Below are positions 31,615 through 52,314 of a stretch of 53,648 bases of DNA, piece after piece. Origin of the DNA: Clostridia bacterium (GTDB lineage: Bacteria > Bacillota > Clostridia > Christensenellales > Borkfalkiaceae); the NCBI GenBank assembly GCA_017501205.1, contig JAFVXM010000001.1, positions 1 to 53,648 on the forward strand. Reading direction: 5' to 3'. Both the position numbers and the translations under genes were made by a program. The stretch's first letter is position 1. Each line of letters begins with the position of its first letter. The notes beneath the pieces are model-generated. The model had not been told where the DNA came from. It made no database searches and saw only the letters and a program-made list of their open reading frames with translations.

Positions 31615-31643
31615 TTAAAAATACGGAAAAGCGGGTGTATAAT
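31615..31643 (+). promoter_or_regulatory. candidate promoter for the tail-fibre-like gene
   Basis: TTAAAA (31615-31620), 17 nt, TATAAT (31638-31643), preceded by TG. Confidence 0.4.
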
Positions 31644-31688
31644 AAAGACGGTCGAAAGACTTCCGGCGCTGCCTGCGGGGAGAATTTT

Positions 31689-34402: not shown

Positions 34403-35488
34403 TTAATTTATCAAAATGCCGGGGATATAGGTTTTGGACAAATAATGCTGTCCGTCCAATATTTGCAGCAGCAGGTTCATTGCTGTGGATCCAATCTCCA
34501 TAAAATTCTGTTTTATACATATTATATGGTTTGATCTTATAAAATCCTCGTCTATGCAGTCAAATCCCGTTATTGTTAGTTGATCGGGTACCTTTATGTT
34601 GCGGGATAATGCTTCGGCAATAAGCGCGTACATGCTTTTATCGTTAACGCAACATATCGCAGTGGGCTTTTCGGGCATTTTTTCGTATTCGTCAAGGCAC
34701 TTTGAAACGTATTTATTGAACTTTTTTACCTGCTGTGCTTGAGAAAGCGTGAGCTCCTGCTTTCTCATATCGGTACTGTCAAACAGGAAGGCTCGTTCTA
34801 TCTTAACGTTATTTTTAATCATGCCGGAGCAAAAGCCCTCAAAGCGTTCCTTTTCGGTTATTGCCATGCGGTTGTTTATGGAAAAAAAGCCTATCTTGGA
34901 GTGCCCTTGAGAAACAAGCATGGAAACCACCTGCTCGGTGCTTTTTGCGTTGGTTGTCGTTATAAGAGGAGTATTGAGCCCTATTATATTGCGGTCTATG
35001 CAAATTATCGGAATCCCTTTGGAAAGGATTTCGCCGTAAACATCTATATTATACATGGACGAGCATGGGTACACGATCACTCCGTCCGGGTTGTTTATTT
35101 TGATGCTTTCAAGAGCAGCGCGCTCCTTTGCTATGTTGTTTTTAGTGTTGTAAAACGGAGTATATACGTTGTTTTTAAGAGCAACGGCTTCAATTCCCTT
35201 AAAAATTGAGTTGTAGCTTTCCGGAAATGGCAAAACTACCGGGACAATAAGCTTTTTGTTTTTGCGGTCGAGCTTGCCGTTTACTATTGTGCCGCATTTT
35301 TTTACTCTGTAAACGATGTTTATTGCTGCAAGATCGTTAAGAGCTCTTGCCACTGTGATCCTGCTTACCCCGTAGAAGTTTGCAAGCTCCAGCTCGGTGG
35401 GTAGCTTATCTCCAACCTTATATTCGTTGGTTTTAATCTTGTGCATAATATCGTTGTAAATTTTAGAATAGAGCTTTTCTTTTTTCAC
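34403..35488 (-). CDS. AraR-type transcriptional regulator (GntR wHTH fused to a LacI/PBP1 sugar-binding domain)
   Basis: GTG start 5 nt after GAGGAG. LPTELELANFYGVSRITVARAL wHTH, then a periplasmic-binding-protein-like fold (VIVYPCSS..., IGFFSINN..., TAICCVNDKSMYALI). Confidence 0.85.
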   Translation of the reverse strand: MKKEKLYSKIYNDIMHKIKTNEYKVGDKLPTELELANFYGVSRITVARALNDLAAINIVYRVKKCGTIVNGKLDRKNKKLIVPVVLPFPESYNSIFKGIEAVALKNNVYTPFYNTKNNIAKERAALESIKINNPDGVIVYPCSSMYNIDVYGEILSKGIPIICIDRNIIGLNTPLITTTNAKSTEQVVSMLVSQGHSKIGFFSINNRMAITEKERFEGFCSGMIKNNVKIERAFLFDSTDMRKQELTLSQAQQVKKFNKYVSKCLDEYEKMPEKPTAICCVNDKSMYALIAEALSRNIKVPDQLTITGFDCIDEDFIRSNHIICIKQNFMEIGSTAMNLLLQILDGQHYLSKTYIPGILIN

Positions 35489-35678: not shown

Positions 35679-35708
35679 TTGACAAAAACACCACCTTGTT
35701 TTTATAAT
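35679..35708 (+). promoter_or_regulatory. sigmaA promoter of the ABC/surface-protein operon
   Basis: TTGACA (35679-35684), 18 nt, TATAAT (35703-35708). Confidence 0.6.
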
Positions 35709-35800
35709 AAGAATACACTTTTATTTAAGATTTTTGCTGAAAGAAAAAGACAAAAACTCTTAAACTTGGTTAAATAGTGACGAAAAGGAGGATCTTTAAA

Positions 35801-37159
35801 ATGTTAAAAAAGATTTTAATGCTCATCTTGTGTATTGCCGTTGTTTTTTCAACCGTTGCTTGCGGCAACAACGGCGGTCAGTCTGATGGTGGAAATGAGG
35901 AAAATCCTAACAGGCAGATAACTCTCAGAATTGAATCTGCGGCCCCGTTAAGATATAACTATCCTGCTCTTTTGAACTCTGAGGAAGAGGGCAGCATGCT
36001 TTACAATCAGGCGTTGTTTTCAAAGAAGGTGGTAGAGGGCTTCAAGGCGCTTTACCCCAACATAAATCTCCAGTTCATTGAGCACGGCTGGGGAGATGCT
36101 CTGTACCAGAAGCAGCAGCTTGAGATACAAGCGTGGGTTGACGGTCTTGGAATGTCTCTTGATATTATGATTGGCGAGCCTTATATGGGCTTTTTCGCAG
36201 AAAACGGCGTTTTTGCAGAGCTTGATGCAAGTAAATTTACGCACGTTATAGAGGGCGCGTATTCGGATATGAAAATTGACGGTAAGCTATATGGCGTTCC
36301 TATGTGTACCGGTATTATGGGCTTGCAGTACAATACCCAGATACTTGCCGAGGTTGGTATTCCTGAGGATGAATGGGTGCCTCAAACCTGGGCAGAGCTT
36401 TTGGAAAACAGCAAAAAAGTAAGCGAGTACGCTGAGAAAAACGGCAAGGAATATAGCGGAATAATGATGAATAACGTTGCAGGTATGTCCTGTGCGTTCA
36501 GAGCACTTCCTTTTATGCGTCAGGCCGGCGGCGATATTTTTGATGAGAACGGTGGGCTTGCGCTCAACTCCGAGGCAAACAAGGAAGCCTTTACTTACCT
36601 TCGTTCACTCGCAAAATACGCGTATAAGGAAGGTCTTACGACCGGTAGTGAGGATTATCTCCAGAGTTATTTTGTAACCGGGCACGCTGCTTACATGGTT
36701 GAGGGTCAGTGGTCTATGGCAACAGCTCCCGATCATATCAAGGCTGCAAACCTTCCCAAAAAAGAAGCGAATTCAACTGTAAACGGCAACGTTTACTGCG
36801 GTAACGTTTTATTTGGTATAACCGAGGGCTCTAAGAACAAAGCGGCGGCAGAGGCGTTTTTGGAATACTTAACCAGCGCTGAGGTTCAGAACTGGTTCTA
36901 CGAGCTTGACGGCAGGCTTCCTATAAACAAAAACGTTTTAAGCAGCGCAGAAATCAAAGAGGTTTATCCTAACATAAATCCCTATATCGATGCTCTTGTG
37001 GCAGGCGGCTTTGAGGGTGGACTTTCCGGCTTCACTACCAATGCAACCGATATATGGAACAAGTGGGGCTCCTTCTTTAAGGACGTTTTGACTACGGAAA
37101 AGGATATATCCGTACTGATGACTGAAACACACAACTATATCCTTGACAAGATGGATTAA
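35801..37159 (+). CDS. extracellular solute-binding lipoprotein of a CUT1-type carbohydrate ABC importer
   Basis: AAGGAGG RBS before ATG 35801, lipobox FSTVAC, family-1 SBP length and pattern. Confidence 0.88.
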   Translation: MLKKILMLILCIAVVFSTVACGNNGGQSDGGNEENPNRQITLRIESAAPLRYNYPALLNSEEEGSMLYNQALFSKKVVEGFKALYPNINLQFIEHGWGDALYQKQQLEIQAWVDGLGMSLDIMIGEPYMGFFAENGVFAELDASKFTHVIEGAYSDMKIDGKLYGVPMCTGIMGLQYNTQILAEVGIPEDEWVPQTWAELLENSKKVSEYAEKNGKEYSGIMMNNVAGMSCAFRALPFMRQAGGDIFDENGGLALNSEANKEAFTYLRSLAKYAYKEGLTTGSEDYLQSYFVTGHAAYMVEGQWSMATAPDHIKAANLPKKEANSTVNGNVYCGNVLFGITEGSKNKAAAEAFLEYLTSAEVQNWFYELDGRLPINKNVLSSAEIKEVYPNINPYIDALVAGGFEGGLSGFTTNATDIWNKWGSFFKDVLTTEKDISVLMTETHNYILDKMD

Positions 37160-37164
37160 TAAAA

Positions 37165-38100
37165 ATGAGGAAGGAAAGAGATTATAACAGCCTGTATCAA
37201 TCACAGGCTGTTTGCCGCAAACCAAGCAAGCGAAAGGTTAGGGAAACCTTGAAAGGCTGGGGCGTAATCGGTCCGATAATAATATATTTTGCTATTTTCG
37301 GGCTTTACCCTGTGGGGGTTATGATCTATAACAGCTTTTTTGCGAAGGCGGGCTTTTTTAAATACGAATTCACGGGCTTTTCCAATTACCTGGAGTTTTT
37401 CTCAGATCCCGAGTATTATGTTTTGCTGTTAAATACACTTCTAATAGCAGTTTTTACTATAGGCTTGAGTTTAGTGCTGGGTATGCTTGTTGCACTTCTT
37501 ATAACGGGACCGATAAGGGGAAAGGGAGCATACAGAACCATTTACTACGTGCCTGTTATTATATCAATGGCGGTCGTATCCCAAATCGTAAGGGTTTGGC
37601 TTGATTACAATCACGGAGCCTTTAATAATATTGTGGAGCTTATTTCGGGCAAGAGAATAGAGTGGACCGAAAGCACCTTTTGGATGTATTTTTGGATTAT
37701 CGTGATATGTATTTGGAAGGGCCTTGGCGCAACGGTTATTCTTTTTGTTGCGGGGCTTACCGGCATACCGCAGGAAATACACGAGGCAGCAGAGGTAGAC
37801 GGAGCTGCCGGAGCCGTAAAATTCTTTAAAATAACTCTACCGCAGCTTCGCCATATGCTTGTGTTTGTGATGATTACGAGCATTATTGGTGCTTTTAACG
37901 TATTTGAACCTGTACAGCTTATTTCCGGCGGCGGGCCAGACGAAACGACGGAGGTTATACTGTTTAAAATTTACAATGAGGCCTTCCAGAACGGCGATAG
38001 AGGCATGGCAAGTGCGATATCGGTTATTGTGTTTATCATACTTATGGTGCTCACGATACTGAACATGAAGTTTGGCGAAGAGAAGCAGGAAAAGCTATGA
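37165..38100 (+). CDS. carbohydrate ABC transporter permease (MalF-like)
   Basis: 6 TM helices and EAA loop EAAEVDGAGAVKFFKITLP. Confidence 0.9.
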   Translation: MRKERDYNSLYQSQAVCRKPSKRKVRETLKGWGVIGPIIIYFAIFGLYPVGVMIYNSFFAKAGFFKYEFTGFSNYLEFFSDPEYYVLLLNTLLIAVFTIGLSLVLGMLVALLITGPIRGKGAYRTIYYVPVIISMAVVSQIVRVWLDYNHGAFNNIVELISGKRIEWTESTFWMYFWIIVICIWKGLGATVILFVAGLTGIPQEIHEAAEVDGAAGAVKFFKITLPQLRHMLVFVMITSIIGAFNVFEPVQLISGGGPDETTEVILFKIYNEAFQNGDRGMASAISVIVFIILMVLTILNMKFGEEKQEKL

Positions 38101-38957
38101 AAGTAGTAGGGAAGGGAACAAAGACCCTATACCATGTTCTCCTGATTTTTGGAAGCATAATTATGCTGTATCCGTTTGCATTTGCTTTTCTCGGTATGTT
38201 TATGTCGCAAGAGGGATTTTACGAGGTAAGCTTCTTGCCGATTCCCGAGGGATTTAAGTACTGCGTGGACAACATCGCTAAAATTTTAAGGAGAACGGAG
38301 ATATATCCCTCCATTGCTCTGACGTTAGGTCGATTTGTGTGGTACGCATTTATATTGAGCTTTACCTCAGTGCTTGGCGGATACGTTTTTGCAAAGGTAA
38401 ATTTTGCGGGTAAAAACATAGCGTTCTATTTGCTTATGTCGTCAATGATGATACCCGGAGTTGCATTACTTACCCCACAGTATCTTATGTTTAGAAAATG
38501 GTCTCTCGTAGATAATCCGTTGGTATTATTCATTACGGGGTGCTTTTCTGCTTATAACATATTCCTTGTAAGGCAAACGATTGCCGGGCTTGGCGACGAG
38601 TACAAGGAGGCGGCTGAAATTGACGGTGCAGGCTTTATTACCATAGTGTTCAGGATATATTTTCCGATGCTAAAGCCGGTGCTTGCGGTAATACTGATAC
38701 AGACGTTTATAGGCCAGTGGAACGACTATCTCTTCCCCGATATTTTTATGGCGGGGAATACGTCGTGGCTACCGATAGGCGTGCTGTCTGTAAGGATACA
38801 GTCGGATTACATGTATCAGGTTTCGGGTGGCGGATTGGTAAATTATCCGCTGGCGATGGTAATGTCTGTGTTTATGATGATACCGCCCGTAATAATTTAT
38901 ATTATTTTTCAGAAAAACTTTGTTGAAGGCTTAACGGCCGGAGGCGTAAAAAGTTAG
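38097..38957 (+). CDS. carbohydrate ABC transporter permease (MalG-like)
   Basis: EAA loop EAAEIDGAGFITIVFRIYFP and a 4-nt overlap with the upstream permease gene. Confidence 0.9.
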   Translation: MKVVGKGTKTLYHVLLIFGSIIMLYPFAFAFLGMFMSQEGFYEVSFLPIPEGFKYCVDNIAKILRRTEIYPSIALTLGRFVWYAFILSFTSVLGGYVFAKVNFAGKNIAFYLLMSSMMIPGVALLTPQYLMFRKWSLVDNPLVLFITGCFSAYNIFLVRQTIAGLGDEYKEAAEIDGAGFITIVFRIYFPMLKPVLAVILIQTFIGQWNDYLFPDIFMAGNTSWLPIGVLSVRIQSDYMYQVSGGGLVNYPLAMVMSVFMMIPPVIIYIIFQKNFVEGLTAGGVKS

Positions 38958-39079: not shown

Positions 39080-41443
39080 ATGAGAAAACTAATTGGACTA
39101 CTGATATGCTTTTCTATATTGCTCAGCACGGTAGGCTGCGGTGCTCCCATAATTACTGAGGAAGAGCAGGAATTTACGGCATACAGTCAGGTGTGGCAGG
39201 CAGCGGACGCTGCAGTAACGCACGAAACGGGAAACTATTCCGTAGATAACGGGTGGGGCTCTGTTGCAGAAACGGAACCCGGCACGCTGTGCAGTGTTTC
39301 AGTAGATATGCTTTATGCTACGGCATATACTATGGCTGCGCGTCTTTTGACGGACGAGGTTGATACCTCTAAAAGCGTAGTTGCCGTTATGAGAGTGCTT
39401 GACGAAAACGGAAATGAGATAGGCAGGCATAATGTAAGGGTTTGCGATTTTAACGCAAAGCTCAATTATCAGGATTTTGTGTTTACCTTTGCAGTAAAGG
39501 AAAGAACGCCTGCAACCGTTGAAATTTATTGGCCCGGTGCTAATTATGTGCGCGTTAGTGAGTTTGGAATAATGAGCAGAACATTAGATAAGGCTCCCGA
39601 CAACAGCCTTGTAGGCAAAGCAATACTTGGCGTTGATATTGAGGAAGAGATTGTTTATGACGATCAAACCATGTACTATTTCGATCTCAATCAATATATG
39701 CAAACGATGGCAGACGCAGAGCAATCGTATGATATAGCAAACCTTATTTGTACTCTTCAGGGTCTTGTAAACCGTGACGGTCAGCGGCTGTACGTTAGAT
39801 TCTTGCAGCAGAACACCTTCTGCGCAGATACTGATAAGTACTGGCTTGATTATCTTACTGCAGACGGTGAGTGGTTGGCAGGCAAGAACATTGTTGAAGT
39901 AAAATCTCCTATGACGTTGCTTGAGCTTTTTGCTGACTATTATACCGGCTTTGCTGCTTGGGATCCCGATGTTCCCGCTACCGTAAATGCAGTGGCAACC
40001 GCTTGCGGTGTTGATAACCTTTTACCCGTTCGCTACAGTAACGTTGATAACAGCTTATACTGGTATGTAAAAAATGCAGAAGCATTTTCAGATAAACCCG
40101 TTGAAATTGATCTTGGCGGTAAGTTTACCGGAGAAGGTGTTATTTACGGAACTAATAGAGAAACAACCGGCAGCCGTAAGAACGACGTTTACGTATGGGC
40201 AAAGGAAAAATACCTTGACACGCGCAAAACTAATTCTCATATGATGGCGTATCATGTGGATGCATATGCAGCAGATACCGTATTTGCAGCTTATTCGGAT
40301 TTGCAGAATATGTTCCTTTCCAATCGCGATTATTATATTGCAAACAAGGCATTTTTCTTCGATCTTTCCGTAATGGAGTTTGAAATTCCCGATGATGATC
40401 CTGATCAGGTTGATATCGATAGAAATTTCGGTACGATAGATTACAAGACGTTTACGGAAATTATGCTTTCTCAGACGTCTTATGCGGAAGCGGTTGATCC
40501 CGCTACTCCCATTGATGTTGGCGGATTTACTCCTTGGCATCTTAAATATACCCGTTATACCAATCCGGATGCATCCGGCGAGGTTACCTGTGAGTGGGAA
40601 ACCGTTTATCAGTTCTCCATTTATAACGCGTATGTAAATGCAGATGCACCCGGATATACTGCTATGGCAAACGCATCTATTTTCTCACAGTATCCTGCAT
40701 CTGAAAGCTATACGCAGGTTGTAGATAAGAGCGTTAAGGAAACTCTTCCCACTGCGAGCGAGAGGGGTGCAAACTACCTTATGTTCTACGTTGGTGATTT
40801 CGATGCATCCGCATGGTTTAACACCGCTATGATACAGTTCTGGGCAGATCCCAACCGCGGAAAAATTCCTCTTTGTTGGTCATTTGCTCTCAATATAACC
40901 AAGCGTGCACCGCACGTTGCAGAGATGATGTATGCAACTGCAACCGCAAACGATTATTTTGTTGCGGGCGATAACGGTGTAGGTTATCTTAATCCTCAGG
41001 GCTATAACAATAAGCTTTCGGCAGATATTTACGGCGATCACGATAGCTGGGCAGAATACAACAAGGGTGTATTTGAAAGATTTGATATAGATTATCAAGG
41101 CTTCCTTATCACTACCAAAAAGCCCGGTGATCAGATTATAGAATGCTATAAGAAGTTTACCAAGGGTGTAGCTACCAACTTTGTATATACCGGTAGTGTG
41201 GATTTCCCCGTGACCACCAGCATCGACTACAGCAACATGGATAATCTTCTTAATGCAAGCACTAAGATGGAGGTTGGATCTAAGAGCACCTTTAAGCAGC
41301 TTCGCTTTATTCTCCGCAGCCCCACCGATCTCGTAAATATTTACAACATTATAACCTCAGATACCTATAAGGATTATAACTTTAAGGTTGTTGATCCTTA
41401 CACGTTCTACGGCTTATTAGCACAGCAGAACGCCGCAAAATAA
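39080..41443 (+). CDS. GxGYxYP-family lipoprotein (putative, biochemically uncharacterised glycoside hydrolase family) with an extra N-terminal beta-sandwich
   Basis: AGGAGG RBS, lipobox STVGC, and variant signature G-V-G-Y-L-N-P at nt 40976-40996 (FVAGDNGVGYLNPQG); 787 aa. Confidence 0.6.
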   Translation: MRKLIGLLICFSILLSTVGCGAPIITEEEQEFTAYSQVWQAADAAVTHETGNYSVDNGWGSVAETEPGTLCSVSVDMLYATAYTMAARLLTDEVDTSKSVVAVMRVLDENGNEIGRHNVRVCDFNAKLNYQDFVFTFAVKERTPATVEIYWPGANYVRVSEFGIMSRTLDKAPDNSLVGKAILGVDIEEEIVYDDQTMYYFDLNQYMQTMADAEQSYDIANLICTLQGLVNRDGQRLYVRFLQQNTFCADTDKYWLDYLTADGEWLAGKNIVEVKSPMTLLELFADYYTGFAAWDPDVPATVNAVATACGVDNLLPVRYSNVDNSLYWYVKNAEAFSDKPVEIDLGGKFTGEGVIYGTNRETTGSRKNDVYVWAKEKYLDTRKTNSHMMAYHVDAYAADTVFAAYSDLQNMFLSNRDYYIANKAFFFDLSVMEFEIPDDDPDQVDIDRNFGTIDYKTFTEIMLSQTSYAEAVDPATPIDVGGFTPWHLKYTRYTNPDASGEVTCEWETVYQFSIYNAYVNADAPGYTAMANASIFSQYPASESYTQVVDKSVKETLPTASERGANYLMFYVGDFDASAWFNTAMIQFWADPNRGKIPLCWSFALNITKRAPHVAEMMYATATANDYFVAGDNGVGYLNPQGYNNKLSADIYGDHDSWAEYNKGVFERFDIDYQGFLITTKKPGDQIIECYKKFTKGVATNFVYTGSVDFPVTTSIDYSNMDNLLNASTKMEVGSKSTFKQLRFILRSPTDLVNIYNIITSDTYKDYNFKVVDPYTFYGLLAQQNAAK

Positions 41444-41455
41444 GGAGGGGATAAC

Positions 41456-44400
41456 ATGAAAAAATTTACTAAAAGATTTTTAATGCTTGCCTTGAGCGTT
41501 ATGATGGCAGTTTCTACGTTTGTGGGAATTAGCATCAGCGCTACTGCTGAAGGCACAACGGAAAACGTCAATACCGTTACTGAGCTTGCAGAGGTAAAGC
41601 TGGAAGCAAGCAAATTGTTGAACATGTTAGATGGCAACAAGCAGTTCAAGAAAAACAACGTTAAATCGTTTGACTATTTTAACGGCACCGAGGTTGAACA
41701 AAAGCCCTGCTATTTCATGAAGGATATGGGTGGCTACCTCGCATTGATGACGTTTGATACTCCTTACGATGCAAGCGCATACGCAGAGGGGGCAACCCTT
41801 AAGGTAGAGAATGCGGCACTTTCCCTGTTTGTATTCTTCAAAACGGAGGATTGTCTTGCACAGTATCAAACGGCAGGTTATTTTAACATTGATATATGCT
41901 CCGGTGAGCCTCAGGCAGATGGAACATATGCTTACAGCGACAGCTACAAGTGGTCTATTAACATAGTTTCTGCATTTGAAAAGTGCAGGCCCGGCTGGAA
42001 CAAGGTCATCGTTCCCCTTGCATTGGCAGGTGAAAAGTATGGCCAGATGGATTGGGCTAATATCAGATTTATCCGTATCAACGCTACCGGCGTTGGCGGT
42101 GTTGCTACCAGAGTAGGTACCGGCGAATATACTATTTGCACCTCTGAGTACGAGGAATTGACAGTTATCGACGAAGAGAAGAACGTATTCCCCGTTCTTA
42201 CAAAAAAACAGATGGTAGGCTCCCCCGATGTGTTTAACATCGTGGAGTTTGAGCGTGACGGTAAAATGGTTCAGACGTATATTAAGCCTCGCCCCAGCCC
42301 TTGGTGGACGACGCTTGCATACGAAACCCCTATCGACCTGTCTCACTATACTACTACTGAAAAGGTGTTTGATAAGAACATAGCTTCTCTTAACGTACCT
42401 GCTTCTATCGAGGAATATGCAGCAATGCAGATTTACGTTTATTTCCCCGATGAGGAGAACCTTGAGCATTATAAGCTCTGCACCAGTATGAATCTTGACG
42501 TATGCTCCGGTGAGCCTCAGGCGGACGGAACGTATGCGTATAACGATTATTATAAGTATTCCTTCAATTTTGCATCGTTGTTTGAAAAGTGCAGCGTTGG
42601 CTGGAACAGGCTTATACTTCCCCTTTGCACAGCAAATGAAAAGAATTCCACCATGGATTGGGCTAACGTAAGATTTGTTAGAATTAACGGAATGGGCGAT
42701 CCCGGCGGAATACACCCCGTAACAGGCAAGGGCTTCCGTATCGGCTTTGCTGATATCGGCGCATGCTTTACCACCCTTACTGAAATGACTGTTGAGGGAT
42801 ACGTTCCCCCTGTTGTTGAAGAAGAAATTAAGAACGAAAAGGTTTACTGTAACGGCGGAACAGGCTTCCACGTTCTTGGCTTTGATACCGCGTTTGGCGA
42901 CGGACAGGTGATAAGCAGCAACGGATACTATAAGGAAGGCGAAGGTGCCCTCAGACTTTACGGTCAGGGAACAGGAAGCACCGGCAAAAAGCTTGAAAAA
43001 CCCGTAAATCTTTCGATGTACGATACACTTTCGCTCTGGATGTACGTTGATAACGCAGAAAACTTCCTTGCTATGGCTGACGGCCAGATAGAGCTTACCT
43101 CTGCAGGCGGCAGGGATGACGGCAATGAATACAGCTGGGCATTGAAGTCCTTGAATATTAAGGACGGCTGGAACTGGATAACGCTTGATCTTGCAAGTGC
43201 AAAGAAGGGCGAGCCCGATATTAAGAAGATAGATTACTTCAATATTTATTTTGTTGGCGTTCCCGCTCTTGGCGAAGTTATTATCGATGATCTTCACGCA
43301 CACGCAAGCAAAGGCGTTGTTTTGGAATCCTTTGATAACGGTTTTGCCGGTCAGGTTCTCACAGAAGAAGGCAAGGTTGACAAGGCCACTAATATGAGCG
43401 GTCAGGGTTGGATTGCAAGAAAGAAATATGCCACTCCCGTTAATATTGCCGACTGTGATACTATCGGTATGTGGATAAGATGTGACGATGAGACAACCTG
43501 TACCAGTATAGCAGGAACGGAGATTGAATTATCCAGCTCCGGTCAGGCAGACGTAGACGAGCTTGCTTTCTTCCTCCCCGATAATCTTAAGGTTGGCTGG
43601 AATTACGTTACGTGGAAGATCTCTGAGGGTAGAGCAGGCGGCACAATCGATCTTACTGCGATCAACTTTGTAGGTGTTGTAAAGACAGGCTTGCCCATGG
43701 TTACCTGCTTCTTTGACGATTTAAGAGCGTATGAAGATAAGCTTGAGAATCCCGTTGTAATAGATCCTATTGAAAAACAGGTTGTTATAAGTGCAGATAA
43801 GGTTGCAAGCGGCGTGTTCAACGGCATGACCATTGACGATGTTGAGTATAAAGAAGGCTTTGCTTCTCTCTCAACCGTTACCAAGGCAGGCACTACTAAG
43901 CTCAAAGCATTATTTAATCCCGTACAGAGCGGACTTTCCCTCAAGGGTGAGCACGAGCTCGGCTATGCTTTCTGGTTCTATGTAGAGGATGTAAGCAAGC
44001 TGACGGGACTTTACGTTGAGCTTGGTTCCTTTGACGGCCAGCCCTTCGAGCTTGAGTGGCATATTGATTTGAGCACAATTCAGAGCGGCTGGAACTGGAT
44101 TACGTTTAAGGCGAGCGAAGCAGCCCGTCCCAGCGGCGTAATTGATACCAACAATCTTATTCGTACGCGCATTGTTATTGATGGTGAGGCTACCACCGTT
44201 AAGTTTGACTGCTTCGTTGTGGTTGATAGCACTGTTGATGGCGCATTCGATCCTATTGAGGACAAGATTGAGCTTAATCCTATAAACAGCGTTGTAGTAG
44301 ATAACTGTGAAACCGAGTGGGGATATATGACTCACGTAACTGAAACGAACGAGGCTAACAAGAAAGAGGGTTATTCCTCTGTTGAGGTTGAGTCAAATAT

Positions 44401-45523
44401 TGACTTGGCTACCAAGGTCGTTAACGTTGGTAAGACAGAACTTTTATATAATCCGTATAGAAGCAATAACGAGTTAGGTATTGCATTCTGGGCTTATTTT
44501 GAAGACGCGAGCAAGATCACCTCTGCAAAGATTGTTCTTCTTAACGATATCGCCGGCGTTAACGGTGTAAGCTGGACTATTACCGAAAATCTCACCGACG
44601 GTTGGAATTATATAGTACTCGGTGTAGAGGCTGCTGAATTCTTTGGCGCGTTTGACGTAGATGCAATCAATTACGTACAGTACGGCGTTTTTGCTACGGA
44701 AAAGGTTATCTCGCTTGTTGATAGAATAAGAGTTATTAACTACGCAATAGAAGAAAACCGCGCGGAACCCGCATACGAGGGTATTGACCGTCACCCTGTA
44801 GAGGATAAGGTTATTATCGATTGTAACTCTACCGGCGGATTTATCTTTACCGGTAACAGAGTTGATAAGGACGATTTCCGTTATGGAACCGGATCTGTTT
44901 ACACCTCCGGCTTCGGATACCAGTTATATGCTCTCGGCTTGGATATAGGCGCTACTGATCTTATTAAAAAGACCTTTGTTATGGGGCTTTGGGTATGGAT
45001 TGAGGATATTACGCTTTACGACGTAGATTCCTTTAGCAGCCAGATTGAAATAGGCTCCACTAATAACTTTGACGAATACGAGTTGTATTGGGAAAACTGG
45101 TACGAGGGTCTTTCCAACGGCTGGAACTGGGTTGTTTTAGAAGGAAAGGATGCTCATATATCCGGTTCTGCTCCTGATTTCGATAAGCTTTGCCGCTTCC
45201 GTATTTATATTAACGGCGTTGATAATTCTACCCTTAAGATCGACCGTATTACTATTAGTAATATTTACGACGAGGGTATCTTCACCGCTCCTGATTGGGA
45301 GAATGAGGTTATCAATAAGGATAGCGCATTTAGCGGCGCAAACGGCTATATTGCTGAAAATGCTCCTTATTTAGATATCCGCCACGAGGATGTTGCTGAA
45401 GGCTTCGTCGCAGAGGGCCCCGTTGTAAACGACGGATGCTTTGCCGGTATGTCAGTTCAGATACCCGTTTGCATGGCGTTTGTATTCATTGCAGCAGGCA
45501 TGTTGATTAAAAAACGCAAATAA
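41456..45523 (+). CDS. 1,355-aa surface protein: signal peptide, seven CBM-like beta-sandwich modules, and a C-terminal TM anchor plus KKRK (no LPXTG)
   Basis: GGAGGGG RBS. Signal peptide ending SATA|EG. GWN motif recurs 7 times (nt 41993, 42599, 43166, 43595, 44087, 44600, 45119). Hydrophobic tail at aa 1329-1350 plus KKRK. Confidence 0.85.
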   Translation: MKKFTKRFLMLALSVMMAVSTFVGISISATAEGTTENVNTVTELAEVKLEASKLLNMLDGNKQFKKNNVKSFDYFNGTEVEQKPCYFMKDMGGYLALMTFDTPYDASAYAEGATLKVENAALSLFVFFKTEDCLAQYQTAGYFNIDICSGEPQADGTYAYSDSYKWSINIVSAFEKCRPGWNKVIVPLALAGEKYGQMDWANIRFIRINATGVGGVATRVGTGEYTICTSEYEELTVIDEEKNVFPVLTKKQMVGSPDVFNIVEFERDGKMVQTYIKPRPSPWWTTLAYETPIDLSHYTTTEKVFDKNIASLNVPASIEEYAAMQIYVYFPDEENLEHYKLCTSMNLDVCSGEPQADGTYAYNDYYKYSFNFASLFEKCSVGWNRLILPLCTANEKNSTMDWANVRFVRINGMGDPGGIHPVTGKGFRIGFADIGACFTTLTEMTVEGYVPPVVEEEIKNEKVYCNGGTGFHVLGFDTAFGDGQVISSNGYYKEGEGALRLYGQGTGSTGKKLEKPVNLSMYDTLSLWMYVDNAENFLAMADGQIELTSAGGRDDGNEYSWALKSLNIKDGWNWITLDLASAKKGEPDIKKIDYFNIYFVGVPALGEVIIDDLHAHASKGVVLESFDNGFAGQVLTEEGKVDKATNMSGQGWIARKKYATPVNIADCDTIGMWIRCDDETTCTSIAGTEIELSSSGQADVDELAFFLPDNLKVGWNYVTWKISEGRAGGTIDLTAINFVGVVKTGLPMVTCFFDDLRAYEDKLENPVVIDPIEKQVVISADKVASGVFNGMTIDDVEYKEGFASLSTVTKAGTTKLKALFNPVQSGLSLKGEHELGYAFWFYVEDVSKLTGLYVELGSFDGQPFELEWHIDLSTIQSGWNWITFKASEAARPSGVIDTNNLIRTRIVIDGEATTVKFDCFVVVDSTVDGAFDPIEDKIELNPINSVVVDNCETEWGYMTHVTETNEANKKEGYSSVEVESNIDLATKVVNVGKTELLYNPYRSNNELGIAFWAYFEDASKITSAKIVLLNDIAGVNGVSWTITENLTDGWNYIVLGVEAAEFFGAFDVDAINYVQYGVFATEKVISLVDRIRVINYAIEENRAEPAYEGIDRHPVEDKVIIDCNSTGGFIFTGNRVDKDDFRYGTGSVYTSGFGYQLYALGLDIGATDLIKKTFVMGLWVWIEDITLYDVDSFSSQIEIGSTNNFDEYELYWENWYEGLSNGWNWVVLEGKDAHISGSAPDFDKLCRFRIYINGVDNSTLKIDRITISNIYDEGIFTAPDWENEVINKDSAFSGANGYIAENAPYLDIRHEDVAEGFVAEGPVVNDGCFAGMSVQIPVCMAFVFIAAGMLIKKRK
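41891..42100 (+). repeat. intragenic duplicated block, copy 1 (aa 146-215 of the 1,355-aa protein)
   Basis: DICSGEPQADGTYAY...GWNKVIVPL...MDWANIRFIRIN. 45 of 70 residues are identical to copy 2, and the offset is 606 nt. Confidence 0.9.
42497..42706 (+). repeat. intragenic duplicated block, copy 2 (aa 348-417)
   Basis: DVCSGEPQADGTYAY...GWNRLILPL...MDWANVRFVRIN. The stretch tgctccggtgagcctcaggc is identical at nucleotide level in both copies. Confidence 0.9.
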
Positions 45524-45571
45524 GGGCAAAACAAAAACGGTCAGATAATAGAAGCTGATCAAAAATTGAAT

Positions 45572-45602
45572 AAAAACAGGAAGATTATTTCTTCCTGTTT
45601 TT
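45572..45602 (+). terminator. intrinsic terminator ending the ABC/surface-protein operon
   Basis: aaaaacaggaag-attattt-cttcctgttttt. Confidence 0.8.
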
Positions 45603-45798
45603 AATTCAGTTTACCTTAAAACAGTAATTTTTTTGTTTGAAGTATTCTGTGTGATGGCAGCGGAGCAGGGATCTTGTTTGCGCTGTACGTTTTAAAAGTA
45701 GGACTCTGTATAATGGCAGAGTATGGCGGCGAAAGTGCCCTAAATCGCACAAAAACCAAATATTGCGTACTTGTTTAACTACGAAAGGTATATTTGTT

Positions 45799-48450
45799 AT
45801 GAAAAAATTCGTTGTAATTTCTCATACCCATTGGGATAGAGAATGGTATATGACCTTTGAGTGCTTTAGGCTTAGACTTGTTGATCTTGTTGATAGGCTT
45901 TTAGATATAATAGAAGGGGACAGTAATTACATTTTTCATCTTGACGCACAAACCGTGGTTCTTGAGGATTATCTTGAGCTGCGTCCATATAATGAGGAAA
46001 GGCTAAGAAGCTTTGTGAGATCCGGCAATTTGATAATAGGGCCGTGGTATTTACAGAACGATTTTTATTTAAGCTCCGGCGAGTCTACGGTAAGAAACCT
46101 ACAAATAGGAACGGCTATTGCCGAGGATTTCGGCAGATGCAGCAGAGTAGGACATGCACCGGATCAGTTTGGAAATGTTTCTCAGCTTCCTCAAATTTTA
46201 AAGAGCTTTGATATAGATAGCTTTATCTTCGGCAGAGGCTTCAGCCATTATGAAACTGTTGATGGGGAAAGAAGACCTGCCGTTATGCCCACTGAGTTTA
46301 TATGGGTGGGGGCAGACGGCACGGAGGCCCTTGCCGTGCATTTAAAGCATTGGTATAACAATGCACAGCATATGCCGGAGGAGATTGAACTTTCAGAACT
46401 TATACTTACACTCAGTGAAAGCAATTTTGAGGGGCTAAACGTTTCGCCGTACGTGCTTTTAATGAACGGCGTAGATCACCTTGAAGCGCAGGCGGATATC
46501 CTGGACGTAATATCTAAGCTCAGGCAAAAAGGCCACGATATCTCACAAAAAAGCCTTGATAACTATGTTTCAGACGTTAAGCAGGCCGTTAACGGAAAGG
46601 AACTTTTTAGGTTTAAAGGTGCGCTTAATTACGGTGATGATTACAGTATGCTTAAGGGGTGCTGGTCTTCACGCATTTATTTAAAAAGGAGAAATGTTCA
46701 GGCAGAGGATTTGCTTATCAACAATCTTGAGCCTTTATATTCATACCTGGAGCTTAATGGATTCAAGGGATTGTATCCTACCTACGAATTAAACTATTTG
46801 TGGAAAAAGCTTCTTAAAAACCAAACGCATGATTGTATTTGCGGCTGTTCGGTAGACGGTGTGCATTATCATATGGAGGATAGATACTCTCGTGTGGAAG
46901 AGCTTGGAAAAATGTTGCTTGAAAGGGGTATGAAGACCCTTGCGTTGCACTCAGTACATTCGTTGGCAGATGAAAAGAAGTATTTGGTGGCTGTATTTAA
47001 TCCTACCCAGACGGAGCAAACAGCCGTTGTGCAGGCGGCAATGAATTTTACTGAAAACGTGGATAGCATGGCTGTTTACGGTGCAGACGGAGAGCAGATC
47101 CCGTACGAGATCGTAGAGGTTTTTAACCGCCAGTATGATGTTTTCAGCCCTGTAAATTTACCCGGAGTTTTAGATGTAAATACACACGTTATAAGATTTG
47201 TTGCAAAATCGGTGCCTGCATTTTCATCGGCAATTTACGCTGTGGCAATTAACGAAGAAGGGTGCACAATAGAGAAAAAGTGCCGTAAAACGCTTGAAAA
47301 CGACAAATACTGTATTAGCGTTTGTAACGGCGAGTTACATATTGAGAACAAAATAAGTAAGGAAAAAAACGTAAATCCGATACTGCTTGAGGATTGCGTT
47401 GACAGGGGTGATGCGTACGTTTATCGCAAGAGCTCCGACGAGCCGATGATAATAAAGCCCGGGCAGTTTGTTTTTAAGGACGGCGAGCTGAAGCAATCAT
47501 TGGAATTTTCCTTCGAGTACGTTGCTCCCGCGGAATACGATTTTGAGGCGCTTGCTCTGTCTGACGCTCAGGTTACAGAAAGGGTTGAGTGCTCGTTGTC
47601 TATAGACAAGGTCAGCGACGTTATTTCGTTAAGCTATAAAATTATTAACAAGAGGAAGGACCACAGGTTAAGATTGCTCGTAGAGTCCGGAATAAGAGGT
47701 GGGGCAATTGCAACCGATAGTGTGTTTGATTTTGACGAGCGCAAGCCCTATGAAAGCTGTGACGTAACGGAATCGAATACTCATTTCGCGGCAACATTTT
47801 CCGAGGTTTTTGCGGGAAATAGGGCACTTTCTGCCTATACTGAAGGGCAACATGAGGTTGCGTATGAGGAAGGCAGACTGGCGATTACCATACTGCGCTG
47901 TACGGGTGTGATAAACCGTTCTCCTGATACGTTCAGCATGATAGGTGGAGAAACGTGGAGAGTTGATGGCAATCAATGCGTTAAAGACGTTGAGGGTAGG
48001 ATTGGATTTGCTTACGGGGAAAGAAAAGGTCCCGCAAGGAATTATACGGATGCGAAAATGTTTCGCACGGGGCTGCTTGTTCACGCAGATTCCTTTGATA
48101 GTAAAAAATATTCGGGCGGAAGATTTGCCGTTCAGTCTTCAAGGCTGGAAAAGCTATACTATCTGCCGGACAAATATAGCGACTGCAAGGTGTCCTTAAA
48201 GCCCAGCTTTACGTTGGCAGAGGGCAAGCTTACCGTTACGTGCTTTAAAAAAGGTCTTTTTGGCGGATACATTGTAAGGCTGGTAAATCTTACGGATGAA
48301 ATAGTTAAGGATGAATTCTTGTTCGAAGGCAGCATATATTTAACGGATATGTCTGAAAGAGAAAGCAAATTTTTGGGCAATGGACAAGCGACCTTGACGC
48401 TTGTATCCAAGCAAATTTTAACCTTGAGGATCGAAAATGAAAAGGCTTGA
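45799..48450 (+). CDS. GH38 alpha-mannosidase (MngB/SpGH38-like, cytoplasmic)
   Basis: VISHTHWDREWY, HLDAQT, GPWYLQND, GHAPDQFG. No signal peptide. Start ATG 45799 is preferred over the upstream alternative. Confidence 0.9.
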   Translation: MKKFVVISHTHWDREWYMTFECFRLRLVDLVDRLLDIIEGDSNYIFHLDAQTVVLEDYLELRPYNEERLRSFVRSGNLIIGPWYLQNDFYLSSGESTVRNLQIGTAIAEDFGRCSRVGHAPDQFGNVSQLPQILKSFDIDSFIFGRGFSHYETVDGERRPAVMPTEFIWVGADGTEALAVHLKHWYNNAQHMPEEIELSELILTLSESNFEGLNVSPYVLLMNGVDHLEAQADILDVISKLRQKGHDISQKSLDNYVSDVKQAVNGKELFRFKGALNYGDDYSMLKGCWSSRIYLKRRNVQAEDLLINNLEPLYSYLELNGFKGLYPTYELNYLWKKLLKNQTHDCICGCSVDGVHYHMEDRYSRVEELGKMLLERGMKTLALHSVHSLADEKKYLVAVFNPTQTEQTAVVQAAMNFTENVDSMAVYGADGEQIPYEIVEVFNRQYDVFSPVNLPGVLDVNTHVIRFVAKSVPAFSSAIYAVAINEEGCTIEKKCRKTLENDKYCISVCNGELHIENKISKEKNVNPILLEDCVDRGDAYVYRKSSDEPMIIKPGQFVFKDGELKQSLEFSFEYVAPAEYDFEALALSDAQVTERVECSLSIDKVSDVISLSYKIINKRKDHRLRLLVESGIRGGAIATDSVFDFDERKPYESCDVTESNTHFAATFSEVFAGNRALSAYTEGQHEVAYEEGRLAITILRCTGVINRSPDTFSMIGGETWRVDGNQCVKDVEGRIGFAYGERKGPARNYTDAKMFRTGLLVHADSFDSKKYSGGRFAVQSSRLEKLYYLPDKYSDCKVSLKPSFTLAEGKLTVTCFKKGLFGGYIVRLVNLTDEIVKDEFLFEGSIYLTDMSERESKFLGNGQATLTLVSKQILTLRIENEKA

Positions 48451-50413
48451 TTTTGTTAATGCTTTGATGGGCTCGTATAATGAGCCGAGGTTTTCAAACG
48501 GAAATATTTATCCTGTTATTGCCCGTCCGTTTGCAATGGTTAATTTTACCGTTCAAACAAGCGGTACAAGCAATTGGTTTTATAATCCTAAATCGCGCTG
48601 CGTGGAGGGCGTGAGGCTTACGCATCAGCCGTCACCGTGGGTTGGAGATTACGGGCATCTTCTTATAACACCGTTTACAGGGGAGCTTTCTTCAGATCCC
48701 GGAATGAGATGGTCGAGTTACCGTCCGGAGCAAGCAGTTGTTAGGCCGGACTTGCTGAAGCTGTATATGCAGAGATACCGCATAAACGTTTTGGTTACCT
48801 CAACGCAAAGAGGAGGATATTTTTTCATTAAAGGCGAAGATAAAAGCGTTGGAATTGCGTTTGCTACGTTTGGTAATTCGCAGTTTGCGGCAGAGGGTAA
48901 TGCTGTAACCGGATGGACGGACAGTCAGTCTATCTGGGGCTTTGATGGATTAAGAGAATATTTTTATATACAGTTTGATTCAAACGTTCAACGCGTGCGG
49001 GAGCTCGAAAACGGTGGCATTGCCGTATACTTCAACGAAAAAAGCGTTGAAATGAAAATGTCAACGAGCTTCATTTCCGTAAAGCAAGCAGAGCTCAATT
49101 ATAAACGTGAGCTTGACGGTAAGGATTTTGAAAGCGTTAGACTTTTAAGTGAGACAGAATGGGAAGGGCTTTTGAGCTCTATTGACGTTACGAGTGAGGA
49201 TGAAAAAAAGCTTCACATCTTTTATACGTGTCTTTACAGAACGTTTTTATATCCGAGAATTTTTTACGAGTATGATGAAACAGGCATGCCTGTTCACTAC
49301 AATGCAGATACGAAAACGTGCGAAAAAGGCGTCTTTTACACAGATAACGGCTTTTGGGATACGTACAGAACCGTATATCCGCTCCTTTCAATTGTAAGGC
49401 CTAAGCTTGTTGCTGAAATGGTGGAGGGCTTTATAAATTACGGCGAAGAAACAGGCTGGCTTCCCAAGTGGATAAGCCCGGGAGAGATAGGCATAATGCC
49501 TGGCGCATTGGTAGAGGCTGTGATTGCGGATGCTTGTGTTAAGGGGATAATATCCGATGACCTGCGTTCGCGTGCATATAAGCTTCTTAAGAAAAACGCA
49601 TTTGAAGCGGGAGAGGGAAGACACGGCAGAAATGAAATAGCCGAATACATCAAGTATGGATATATACCTAATTGCTACAGGGAGAGTGTAAATAATACCT
49701 GCGATTGTGCTTATGGTGATTTCTGTGTTTCGGTTGTTGCTGAAATGGAGGGTGATCACGCAACGGCAAAAGAATTACTTGCCAGAAGTAAAAGCTACGC
49801 AAAGCTTTTTGATCCGCAAACCAAATTTTTACGGAGTCGCGATAAGCAAGGTAACGTTAAAAAGACGTTCGACCCGTTCGAGTGGGGCGGAGATAACTGT
49901 GAGGGCAGTAGCTGGCAGAATAGCTTTGCCGTATATCACGACGTTGACGGGTTGATTTCTCTTTACGGAAGCAAAAAGGCGCTGGAAGCCCGCTTGGACG
50001 AGTTGTTTTCCGCTGCCCCCATTTTTGAGGTGGGGCAATATGGGCAGGAGATTCACGAGATGAGTGAAATGGCTTGTGTGGATTTTGGGCAGATGGCAAT
50101 TTCCAATCAACCAAGCTTTCATATTCCGTGGCTATATGTTTTATGCGGTAGGAGAGACAAGGCATCTTTTTGGGTTGAGAGGCTTGCAAAAGAGGCGTTT
50201 TTCTGCGATATAGAGGGTTTTCCTGGAGATGAGGACAATGGAACCACGTCTGCGTGGTATATTTTTGCATGTCTGGGCTTTTATCCAATATGCCCGGGCA
50301 AAAACGAATACGTTGCAACAAAACCACTTTTTGATAGTATAAGGATTAACGGAAGAGACGTTAGAGTAGATCTTCCGGATGTTGTGGGCATTGAGGAGCT
50401 GTTTAGGAATTAA
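48437..50413 (+). CDS. GH92 alpha-mannosidase (cytoplasmic, relatively short)
   Basis: GNIYPVIARPFAMV, FYTCLYRTFLYPR, GFWDTYRTVYPLLSI, GWLPKW, NQPSFHIPWLY, GDEDNGTTSAWYIFACLGFYPICPG. Overlaps the GH38 gene by 14 nt. Confidence 0.9.
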   Translation: MKRLDFVNALMGSYNEPRFSNGNIYPVIARPFAMVNFTVQTSGTSNWFYNPKSRCVEGVRLTHQPSPWVGDYGHLLITPFTGELSSDPGMRWSSYRPEQAVVRPDLLKLYMQRYRINVLVTSTQRGGYFFIKGEDKSVGIAFATFGNSQFAAEGNAVTGWTDSQSIWGFDGLREYFYIQFDSNVQRVRELENGGIAVYFNEKSVEMKMSTSFISVKQAELNYKRELDGKDFESVRLLSETEWEGLLSSIDVTSEDEKKLHIFYTCLYRTFLYPRIFYEYDETGMPVHYNADTKTCEKGVFYTDNGFWDTYRTVYPLLSIVRPKLVAEMVEGFINYGEETGWLPKWISPGEIGIMPGALVEAVIADACVKGIISDDLRSRAYKLLKKNAFEAGEGRHGRNEIAEYIKYGYIPNCYRESVNNTCDCAYGDFCVSVVAEMEGDHATAKELLARSKSYAKLFDPQTKFLRSRDKQGNVKKTFDPFEWGGDNCEGSSWQNSFAVYHDVDGLISLYGSKKALEARLDELFSAAPIFEVGQYGQEIHEMSEMACVDFGQMAISNQPSFHIPWLYVLCGRRDKASFWVERLAKEAFFCDIEGFPGDEDNGTTSAWYIFACLGFYPICPGKNEYVATKPLFDSIRINGRDVRVDLPDVVGIEELFRN

Positions 50414-50767: not shown

Positions 50768-50796
50768 TTGACAATGCAGGCGTTATTTATTATACT
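50768..50796 (+). promoter_or_regulatory. sigmaA promoter upstream of the metallophosphoesterase gene
   Basis: TTGACA (50768-50773), 17 nt, TATACT (50791-50796). Leaves a leader of about 105 nt. Confidence 0.55.
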
Positions 50797-50907
50797 ATAA
50801 ACAAGGGCGATGCTAAATTGTTTGATGAGAGCTTGAAATGCCGTTAGGCGCAAAAGGCCATAAAACATGCGAAAAAGGCCACTTTTATATATTGATTGAG
50901 GTTTGAA

Positions 50908-51933: not shown

Positions 51934-52026
51934 CGGTTTTCTAAATATAAAAAGGTCGAATATACTTCTATATACTACACATAAGCTACCGCTTCGCTCT
52001 CAATCTATAACCGCTTTGTAAGGAAT

Positions 52027-52070
52027 AAAAACCCCCGTTTTTGTGCGAAAAACGGGGGTTTTATATTTTT
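52027..52070 (+). terminator. intrinsic terminator
   Basis: aaaaacccccgttttt-gtgcg-aaaaacgggggtttt plus a T-rich tail. Confidence 0.8.
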
Positions 52071-52314
52071 AAATTTCTTTATTTATAAGCCAATTTGGCG
52101 AAAGAACTGTTTGCAACGCAAAAGCGTGGATATATATTAAAAGGTTGAAAATATTTTTTGGTTTTAGTATGTTTTTATGAAATATGTGTAAAAATCCTAA
52201 AATGTTATGTTTTTTTCTCTATTGATTTATTTTTTCCGTATAGTATAATTTTAGTAGGATTCGATCAATTAGCGAGATTGAAGTTTAAACTATCATTGTA
52301 TTTTGGAGGAATTT

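Follow-up and report, generated by a model that had tools for sequence, protein, structure and literature searches.

What does a secreted protein of 1,355 amino acids (aa) without a recognizable catalytic domain contribute to an operon that appears to serve the use of mannose glycans, and by what means would it be held at the cell surface? The question is raised by a gene in a stretch of 53,648 nucleotides (nt) from a Clostridia bacterium of the order Christensenellales (family Borkfalkiaceae; assembly GCA_017501205.1, contig JAFVXM010000001.1), the whole of which is referred to here as the window. The gene lies between one for a GxGYxYP lipoprotein and one for an alpha-mannosidase of glycoside hydrolase (GH) family 38, and its product consists of a signal peptide, seven tandem modules, an acidic linker, and a hydrophobic C-terminal tail (Table 1). 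An earlier note, made from the letters of the sequence, had read this product as a membrane-tethered scaffold of modules resembling carbohydrate-binding modules (CBMs) for the capture of glycans. We consider it reasonably probable that the protein binds glycans at the cell surface without being catalytic, that it belongs to a conserved mannose-glycan operon of the Christensenellales type, and that its tail is a Cys-type sorting signal.

The seven modules and their wider family

The tripeptide GWN occurs seven times in the protein, while 0.15 occurrences are expected from its composition; a chance repeat was thus rejected. Every GWN is followed by a hydrophobic strand 20 to 30 aa further on, and the positions of the GWN codons (Table 1) and the trailing strands agree with the seven-module anatomy proposed in the earlier note, the positions exactly. 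On the basis of phmmer comparisons of each module with 11 family members, the modules fall into two subtypes (i.e., type A, M1 and M2; type B, M3 to M7). The type A and type B profiles are homologous (hhalign probability, 97.5%; E = 6e-12), and all seven modules therefore belong to one superfamily. M1 and M2 had also been taken for a duplication, which is borne out by their alignment (BLASTP, 40% identity over 197 aa; E = 5e-45), by an offset of exactly 606 nt, and by a run of 22 identical nt. The best-conserved module is M7, the sole type-B module retained in the most distant ortholog; a phmmer comparison of M7 with protein P0011 gave 8e-49. Among 34 module copies, the only invariant residues are the G-W pair and one Asp.

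Most of the acidic linker that follows M7 was modeled by AlphaFold with low confidence (block means of ~40 to 53 over model residues 191 to 240 and of <50 over model residues 192 to 211), and we propose that the linker may form a wall-spanning stalk. When 5.8 billion proteins were searched with a profile of the linker and tail, the sole matches were fragments of the family itself; therefore, the conserved linker is family-specific.

Modules of both types are predicted to be beta-jelly-rolls with a galactose-binding-domain-like fold. In the AlphaFold model of M7 with the tail (34-row alignment), the predicted local distance difference test (pLDDT) score was 80.5 overall and >90 over the sandwich (model residues 20 to 171), and M2 (25-row alignment) was modeled as a beta-sandwich with a pLDDT of 82.6. 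A Foldseek search of the PDB with these models retrieved CBM61, CBM16, CBM30, CBM11, CBM4, CBM6, CBM28, CIA30, and Eph ligand-binding domains as neighbors (E = 1e-6 to 1e-3; target-normalized template modeling [TM] score, 0.5 to 0.6; ~10% identity). The best match of M2 was the CBM30 structure 1wmx (E = 4e-6; TM score, 0.58), and M7 matched CBM61, CBM16, CBM30, and CBM11.

This CBM likeness is a resemblance at the level of the fold and not membership in a family, because the Pfam, NCBIfam, and PDB-profile searches were all empty. The whole 1,355-aa protein matched zero families in a Pfam and NCBIfam scan, which detected no catalytic domain; the 34 module copies, scanned separately with Pfam at E <= 10, gave no CBM family and nothing recurrent; and the module profiles had 0 matches to PDB sequences at E <= 1. 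Neither the window protein nor the module copies matched the CBM30 model PF21582 at its curated cutoff. A phmmer search of the PDB with the whole protein returned only chance-level matches to Eph receptors (E, ~0.3), which foreshadowed the jelly-roll fold. Thus, the CBM-like character that the earlier note gave to the modules is upheld by the predicted structures and their Foldseek neighbors, and no characterized CBM or adhesin family was matched in the Pfam scan of the modules. The modules are like CBM30, CBM11, CBM16, and CBM61 (e.g., the CBM30 of C. thermocellum CelJ; 1wmx/2c24) in fold and in size (140 to 200 aa), but they share ~10% identity with them and have no Pfam or PDB-sequence match. 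In addition, seven modules make up the whole protein here, instead of being appendages of an enzyme, and the context of the locus points to mannose glycans and not to beta-glucans.

Jelly rolls also include GH16, GH11, GH12, and polysaccharide lyase family 7 enzymes, and the modules might accordingly hide an endo-acting depolymerase in an operon whose sole other extracellular enzyme candidate, the GxGYxYP protein, is uncharacterized. We regard such a cryptic enzyme as very improbable and rejected it. Chondroitinase ABC and agarases do appear at lower ranks of the Foldseek results, where the matching part is an accessory domain, but the top structural matches are non-catalytic CBMs. No catalytic family was found in the whole protein or in the 34 copies, in agreement with the earlier observation that the protein bears no hydrolase, lyase, or protease motif, and the invariant G-W pair and Asp fit a structural core and not a conserved acid pair.

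The module is found in many other proteins. The type-B profile, run exhaustively with HMMER on 1.84 billion representative proteins, matched 1,960 clusters (defined at 50% identity) at E <= 1e-3; the number was 966 at E <= 1e-10 and 237 at E <= 1e-30, and a single protein has up to 18 module copies. The family, which the earlier note had suspected to be uncharacterized, is unnamed in Pfam, NCBIfam, and PDB sequences, yet it is not rare. When ten members were scanned with Pfam, the module was unannotated save for one borderline CBM30 match in a distant member (P0087; 27.6 bits, with a cutoff of 27), and the partner domains were a GH5 cellulase with Laminin_G_3, DUF3823, and PKD with a type IX secretion system (T9SS) tail. 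Many Bacteroidota members carry an N-terminal lipobox, after which comes CKKE or CKKD.

Three copies of the module (E = 1e-61) are found in P0088, a Bacteroidota lipoprotein encoded in the order SusC-SusD-DUF3823-hypothetical-P0088-GH43. Judged from this gene order, it occupies the SusE/F slot of a polysaccharide utilization locus, which backs the SusE-type analogy by homology too. Like SusE/SusF (SGBP-B), the window protein is a non-catalytic, multi-domain beta-sandwich protein encoded between transport and glycosidase genes. However, SusE/F belong to Bacteroidota and bear an N-terminal lipobox, whereas the window protein starts with a signal peptide of the signal peptidase I type, is anchored at its C-terminus, is much larger (seven modules), and comes from a Clostridia host with an ABC importer instead of SusC/D. 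This host is of the spore-former type, since the window carries SpoIIR, SleB, and YpeB. We therefore describe the window protein, from its sequence features, as a SusE/F analog and not a member. The comparison with SusD/SusE made in the earlier note stands for SusE/F, through the slot of P0088; SusD is the poorer analogy.

The fold also includes the Eph receptor ligand-binding domain and CIA30, and the modules might bind proteins, making the seven-module protein a cohesin-like scaffold, spacer, or stalk that places the GxGYxYP lipoprotein and/or the substrate-binding protein (SBP) of the importer beyond the wall. M7 and the linker, which are far better conserved than the other modules and are the only type-B parts in the most distant ortholog, would suit such a role, as would the strict linkage to the GxGYxYP gene. 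We nevertheless think this quite unlikely: the best structural neighbors are overwhelmingly CBMs, family members are fused to GH5 or lie in a SusE/F slot, settings in which glycan binding is usual, and the number and type of modules vary freely among orthologs, which better suits avidity for a polymer.

The operon and its mannose assignment

Full-length relatives of the seven-module protein form only 11 clusters among 5.8 billion proteins, with identities of 85% to 27%. We compared gene order in 15 loci (i.e., five look-ups and ten GTDB species genomes), among them loci of Candidatus Gallimonas intestinalis, Christensenellaceae, Christensenella, and Clostridia metagenome-assembled genomes (MAGs) from the gut of chickens, humans, and mice. 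All 15 have an identical order, that of the 27%-identical ortholog included, and runs from the regulator through the SBP, two permeases, GxGYxYP, and the seven-module gene to GH38, often with mannose-catabolic genes and GH92. Homologs are thus linked to carbohydrate loci in 15 of 15 cases, a linkage on which the earlier note had made its scaffold reading depend; together with the predicted CBM-type fold and the P0088 slot, it lends support to that reading.

The neighboring proteins are ~60% identical across loci, while the seven-module protein is 26 to 54% identical and varies in module count. This pattern of sequence divergence would fit a component that is exposed at the surface and evolves fast. 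Such a protein, large and repetitive and found in MAGs from chicken, human, and mouse gut, might also be an adhesin directed at the host or at particles (i.e., mucin, epithelium, or yeast cells), with its operon position reflecting co-regulation. That reading is improbable, given that the gene always lies between a putative extracellular enzyme and mannosidases in orthologs down to ~26% identity, and adhesion to mannose-rich surfaces and capture of substrate are in any case mutually compatible.

The mannoside assignment is made because of GH38 and GH92 and because of the mannose-catabolic genes of related loci. Christensenella-type loci (L002:13793-20838, L003, and L012-L014) carry genes for a PfkB kinase, a Lyx_isomer-like cupin, and a class II aldolase between GH38 and GH92, and L002 has a PMI-ROK fusion upstream. 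Judged from its annotations, the L002-type gene set appears to lead all the way from mannose to central metabolism, and this apparent route supports the mannose assignment of the locus. The earlier designation of the transporter as a mannoside importer holds in part: the neighboring GH38 and GH92 agree with it, whereas the SBP is closest to maltose and acarbose binders (PDB relatives at 2e-16), the mannotriose binder BlMnBP1 being matched at only 4.5e-6.

GH38 and GH92 lack signal peptides and are predicted to be cytoplasmic, so that extracellular cutting would have to fall to the GxGYxYP lipoprotein. Its N-terminus reads MRKLIGLLICFSILLSTVGC, with the lipobox STVGC, and its only PDB match is 3sgg (5e-4). 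GxGYxYP has been proposed as a new GH class, linked to alpha-mannan or N-glycan loci and to GH38 and GH92 (PMC4071793).

If the seven-module protein captures glycans, it would be exported by Sec and would display its tandem CBM30/CBM11-like jelly-roll modules on the acidic disordered stalk, where they may hold a polymeric substrate (N-glycan or alpha-mannan) at the cell surface. The GxGYxYP lipoprotein, which among the other products of the operon is the only secreted one with a possible enzymatic role, would cut this substrate. The SBP and the two permeases would then import the fragments, and the cytoplasmic GH38 and GH92 would degrade them to mannose.

Gram-positive N-glycan and mannoside loci (e.g., pneumococcal EndoD-NgtS) combine an ABC importer and GH38/GH92/GH125 with a surface endo-enzyme, which is a GH85 or GH18 endoglycosidase with its own CBMs and an LPXTG anchor. 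The window operon resembles them in its regulator, its SBP and two permeases, its cytoplasmic exo-alpha-mannosidases, and its possession of surface proteins; here, however, the surface parts are the GxGYxYP lipoprotein and a separate, non-catalytic seven-module protein.

Immediately upstream of the regulator, a 475-aa protein (32816-34243, +) has weak matches to the six-hairpin (1e-9) and concanavalin-like (3e-3) domains of bacterial alpha-L-rhamnosidase, and the locus may thus encode a further glycosidase.

The Gly-Cys C-terminal tail

The window protein ends in NDGC-FAGMSVQIPVCMAFVFIAAGMLI-KKRK, with the Cys 24 residues before the first Lys, and an LPXTG-type motif is absent from its last 50 aa. 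The description of the anchor in the earlier note as hydrophobic, basic at its end, and not of the LPXTG type thus applies. In an alignment of ten family sequences, Gly1327 and Cys1328 are the sole invariant residues among the last 50. Gly-Cys is kept in 11 of the 11 family clusters, and the distance from the Cys to the first Lys or Arg is 22 to 30 aa, mostly 22 to 24. In its letters, G-C-[GS]-S would mimic positions -1 to +3 of Gram-positive lipoboxes, with the helix on the opposite side.

We compared 18 tails with the NCBIfam release 20.0 models at E <= 10. No NCBIfam or Pfam sorting-signal model matched the window tail at that threshold, in line with the earlier note's suggestion that the anchoring signal may be uncharacterized, and none of the 18 tails reached the cutoff of any curated sorting model, the best being MYXO-CTERM TIGR03901 (15.6 bits, with a cutoff of 20). 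LPXTG (TIGR01167), NPXTG (NF033846), and the MYXO-, Loki-, Heimdall-, and PEP-CTERM models gave sub-threshold matches only, on homolog tails, and no match to Firmicu-CTERM or the remaining NCBIfam sorting models was listed for the 18 tails. The signal itself is so short that searches based on E-values do not suit it. The tail shares with LPXTG and NPXTG signals a signal peptide at the other end of the protein and a C-terminal motif followed by a helix and a basic tail, but those signals typically have a spacer before the helix, which the Gly-Cys motif directly abuts. Other module-family members end in xPxTG-type signals; the window protein has neither LPXTG nor NPXTG.

The signature is not restricted to the seven-module family: G-C-[SGKQN]-S, a helix, and a basic end were found on at least four other unrelated secreted architectures. 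In one locus (L005), upstream of the operon, lies the gene of a CHB_HEX_C/Fn3_assoc/F5_F8_type_C protein that is unrelated and ends in ...EGDGCQSSASGSAAAALAAAGIAVIKKKKKKED, and the ortholog of the seven-module protein on the same contig ends in ...EGGCQSSAEAAGALFVCAIAAAATFLKRKFAK. A search with this CHB_HEX protein (a family of ~1,180 aa) gave ~45 full-length clusters (28 to 99% identity), 44 of which have a helix-plus-basic end. Among these 44 tails, 40 have a Cys just before the helix, 34 have G at -1, and 31 have S at +2; position +1 is [SGNKQ], and the first Lys or Arg lies 22 to 24 residues past the Cys, a spacing like that of the seven-module family. Two other loci (L016 and L018) each encode four consecutive secreted proteins of three architectures (i.e., Big_2, 3-keto-disaccharide-hydrolase-like, and two CHB_HEX), all with the Cys tail, while the adjoining lipobox proteins are without it. 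The same signal thus occurs on multiple unrelated proteins of one genome (L005, L016, and L018), and the residues around Gly-Cys diverge freely. A short invariant signature at a fixed spacing, at the C-terminus of unrelated proteins on one contig, is the recognition mark of C-terminal sorting signals. From these sequences, the tail probably serves not just as a stop-transfer helix but as a Cys-type sorting signal that is portable between proteins.

Both tailed genes of L005 (L005:1-2502 and L005:10001-14446) carry GCQSSA, whereas orthologs elsewhere have GCGS, GCSS, or GCKS. The shared form is a hint of co-variation of the signature inside a genome, whether by co-evolution with a sorting enzyme or by gene conversion. 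In the L016 and L018 loci (L016:1-13546 and L018:1-13573), which come from other Clostridia MAGs, genes for large secreted proteins are clustered in tandem; the four Cys tails of each locus read GC[GSQNA][SG], helix, and K/R, and an 850-aa lipoprotein is encoded there too. GH3 and other glycan genes flank both clusters, and GH65 flanks that of L016 only.

Tripartite signals of the Cys type have been described as MYXO-, JDVT-, Synerg-, and CGP-CTERM (Haft 2023, bioRxiv 10.1101/2023.06.07.544157; mBio 2025, PMC11980579). They are predicted substrates of CPBP/Rce1-like myxosortases, as has been shown for MYXO-CTERM; the order proposed is Cys lipidation followed by cleavage, and Firmicutes are not mentioned in either paper (10.1101/2023.06.07.544157; PMC11980579). 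With the MYXO-CTERM class the tail shares a signature with an invariant Cys (generically GCGC in MYXO-CTERM), a helix that follows without a spacer, a terminal basic cluster, and its occurrence on many unrelated secreted proteins per genome. It differs in that the signature here is G-C-[SGKQN]-S and in that the family tails score 12 to 16 bits with TIGR03901, below the 20-bit cutoff; none of the curated Cys-type models (i.e., TIGR03901, GC_trans_RRR, JDVT-, Synerg-, and CGP-CTERM) was matched above its cutoff. The known hosts are Myxococcota, some Proteobacteria, Synergistota, and Thermococcales, whereas the hosts here belong to Clostridia; if these are monoderm, as is presumed, they would not need the type II secretion step that has been put forward for MYXO-CTERM. 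By analogy with MYXO-CTERM, the protein would be retained at the surface through the Gly-Cys that abuts the helix of ~20 residues and the Lys/Arg that follow: the Cys would be lipidated at the outer face of the membrane, and an intramembrane protease would then remove the helix.

C-terminal ends vary within the wider module family. Among 150 representative proteins, 107 have no C-terminal helix, 19 end in GC, a helix, and basic residues, 4 have another Cys with a helix and basic residues, 8 have a sortase-like xPxTG, and 12 have a plain helix and basic residues. At least five kinds of ending were noted in the family (P0016-P0161; i.e., bare, Cys-tail, xPxTG, T9SS Por_Secre_tail, and, by eye, dockerin-like repeats).

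The 12 representatives that have a helix and a basic end without a Cys or sortase motif bear on a simpler account, that of a plain type I membrane protein anchored permanently by its helix as a stop-transfer segment, without a dedicated sorting enzyme or cleavage, and with Gly-Cys conserved for another purpose (e.g., packing at the membrane interface, a disulfide, or reversible acylation). A helix followed by KKRK suffices for membrane anchoring, and this account also agrees with the lack of a match to any curated sorting model and of a sorting enzyme nearby (i.e., in the window and in 413 kb of sampled loci). We still hold it to be unlikely, since the signature recurs 22 to 24 residues from the basic cluster on at least five unrelated architectures, several per locus, since the residues around it diverge freely, and since family members of other lineages carry sortase-type C-terminal signals instead.

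Several points weigh against a glycan-binding protein with a Cys-type sorting tail. The genes of the window include none for a CPBP-type protease, a sortase, or another candidate sorting enzyme, and a crude scan of the 413 kb for the CPBP motifs EExxxR/FxxxH/HxxxN found none. Housekeeping sorting enzymes are usually not linked to their substrates, and because of this the missing enzyme near the loci neither supports nor refutes the idea of a sorting signal. Conserved tails inside one protein family are not independent observations, and the Candidatus Gallimonas intestinalis ortholog reads ...TAATVC..., without G-C. This protein (L006:7724-10756; ~1,010 aa), whose tail is ...PDTAATVCVIVFPVLG...KKKRKS with the Cys at the start of the helix, is the sole exception in the family. 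As for the ligand, the SBP has no mannoside signature, and the structural matches of the modules are at the level of the fold only and do not fix what is bound. The activity of GxGYxYP has never been demonstrated (PMC4071793), and the four described Cys-type signals are all from diderm bacteria or archaea (10.1101/2023.06.07.544157; PMC11980579). More tentatively still, and with rather less confidence than an even chance would warrant, we suggest that the tail may be a fifth, uncatalogued Cys-type signal and the first in presumably monoderm Clostridia of the spore-former type, with the seven-module protein as a substrate that founds a new CBM family for mannose glycans.

Features of the window and significance

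The coordinates of the gene, its parts, and its neighbors are collected in Table 1. The open reading frame (ORF), its signal peptide (predicted cleavage between SATA and EG), and the 13-nt junction with the GxGYxYP gene (stop codon ending at 41443, ATG at 41456) were recovered as the earlier note had them, and the terminator that it had placed at 45572 to 45602 corresponds to the 14-bp hairpin of the table. The promoter-like site upstream of the SBP gene is likely, as a pattern match, to mark the start of the operon. A reading of the product as an S-layer protein was rejected, since Pfam detects no SLH or other cell-wall-binding domain.

Table 1. Positions in the window of the seven-module gene, its parts, and its operon neighbors
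Feature	Position	Strand	Evidence or remark
Regulator, GntR helix-turn-helix + LacI-type sugar-binding domain	34403..35488	-	Pfam GntR + Peripla_BP_3/4; divergent
Promoter-like TTGACA-18-TATAAT, 12/12	35679..35708	+	Consensus scan, pattern match only; upstream of SBP gene
ABC substrate-binding protein, family 1, oligosaccharide type	35777..37159	+	Pfam SBP_bac_1/8
Two ABC permease genes	37165-38100, 38097-38957	+	Pfam BPD_transp_1 both
GxGYxYP lipoprotein, putative extracellular glycoside hydrolase	39080..41443	+	Pfam GxGYxYP_C 1.8e-23
Shine-Dalgarno AAGGAGGGG	41442-41450	+	Read directly; overlaps stop codon of GxGYxYP gene
Seven-module surface protein, coding sequence	41456..45523	+	ORF, 1,355 aa, translated
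Signal peptide, residues 1-31	41456..41548	+	n-, h-, and c-regions and A-x-A rule read directly; predicted cleavage
Module 1 (M1), type A, residues 36-238	41561..42169	+	GWN 41993
Module 2 (M2), type A, residues 239-452	42170..42811	+	GWN 42599
Module 3 (M3), type B, residues 453-612	42812..43291	+	GWN 43166
Module 4 (M4), type B, residues 613-756	43292..43723	+	GWN 43595
Module 5 (M5), type B, residues 757-925	43724..44230	+	GWN 44087
Module 6 (M6), type B, residues 926-1098	44231..44749	+	GWN 44600
Module 7 (M7), type B, residues 1099-1268	44750..45259	+	GWN 45119
Acidic linker, residues 1269-1326	45260..45433	+	PDWENE...G.N...EN..Y conserved (alignment columns); mostly predicted disordered
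Candidate Cys-type tripartite C-terminal signal, residues 1327-1355	45434..45520	+	G1327-C1328, hydrophobic helix, KKRK
Terminator-like 14-bp hairpin 3' of seven-module gene	45571-45603	+	Reads on both strands
GH38 alpha-mannosidase	45799..48450	+	Pfam Glyco_hydro_38N + Alpha-mann_mid; N-terminus MKKFVVISHTHWDREW, without signal peptide
GH92 alpha-mannosidase	48437..50413	+	Pfam Glyco_hydro_92 2e-124; without signal peptide

Downstream of GH92, a calcineurin-like metallophosphoesterase (50896-51933, +) has a lipoprotein-type N-terminus (...LLACNGCGAK) and its own promoter-like site (50768-50796). The last 1.7 kb (51934-53648; G+C content, 30 to 41%) holds no ORF of >=70 aa on the expected strand, and no Rfam or tRNA match or notable repeat was found there; Rfam and tRNA scans of the whole window returned nothing. 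Four ORFs (2747-3286, 22909-23907 [-], 30902-31597, and 31578-32627; 179 to 349 aa) have no Pfam family at E <= 0.001. Three of the four were scanned again at E <= 0.1, and that at 31578-32627 gave two chance-level matches only. The remainder of the window is housekeeping in character (i.e., purine genes, SecA, AddAB, RNase E/G, MetK, and the SpoIIR/SleB/YpeB genes).

The finding has a meaning for both parts of the protein. Approximately 2,000 clusters of surface proteins from gut Firmicutes and Bacteroidota share a module that is unnamed in Pfam and NCBIfam and has no PDB-sequence match, and the ligands of this family, once defined, would improve the annotation of glycan-foraging loci. The operon reveals the surface layer of a mannose-glycan system in Christensenellales, a health-associated and little-studied gut lineage, and pairs the module protein with the long-enigmatic GxGYxYP family. 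From its distribution, the tail appears to be uncatalogued and common to many Clostridia surface proteins, which makes it the more interesting lead of the two. If the tail is a sorting signal, Cys-type C-terminal sorting would extend to Clostridia, where it could be tested with a ready list of substrates, and would constitute a Gram-positive route of surface anchoring distinct from sortase and from N-terminal lipoproteins. A whole range of glycan-active and adhesin-like proteins, large and secreted, would then be marked by the tail for lipid anchoring at the C-terminus.

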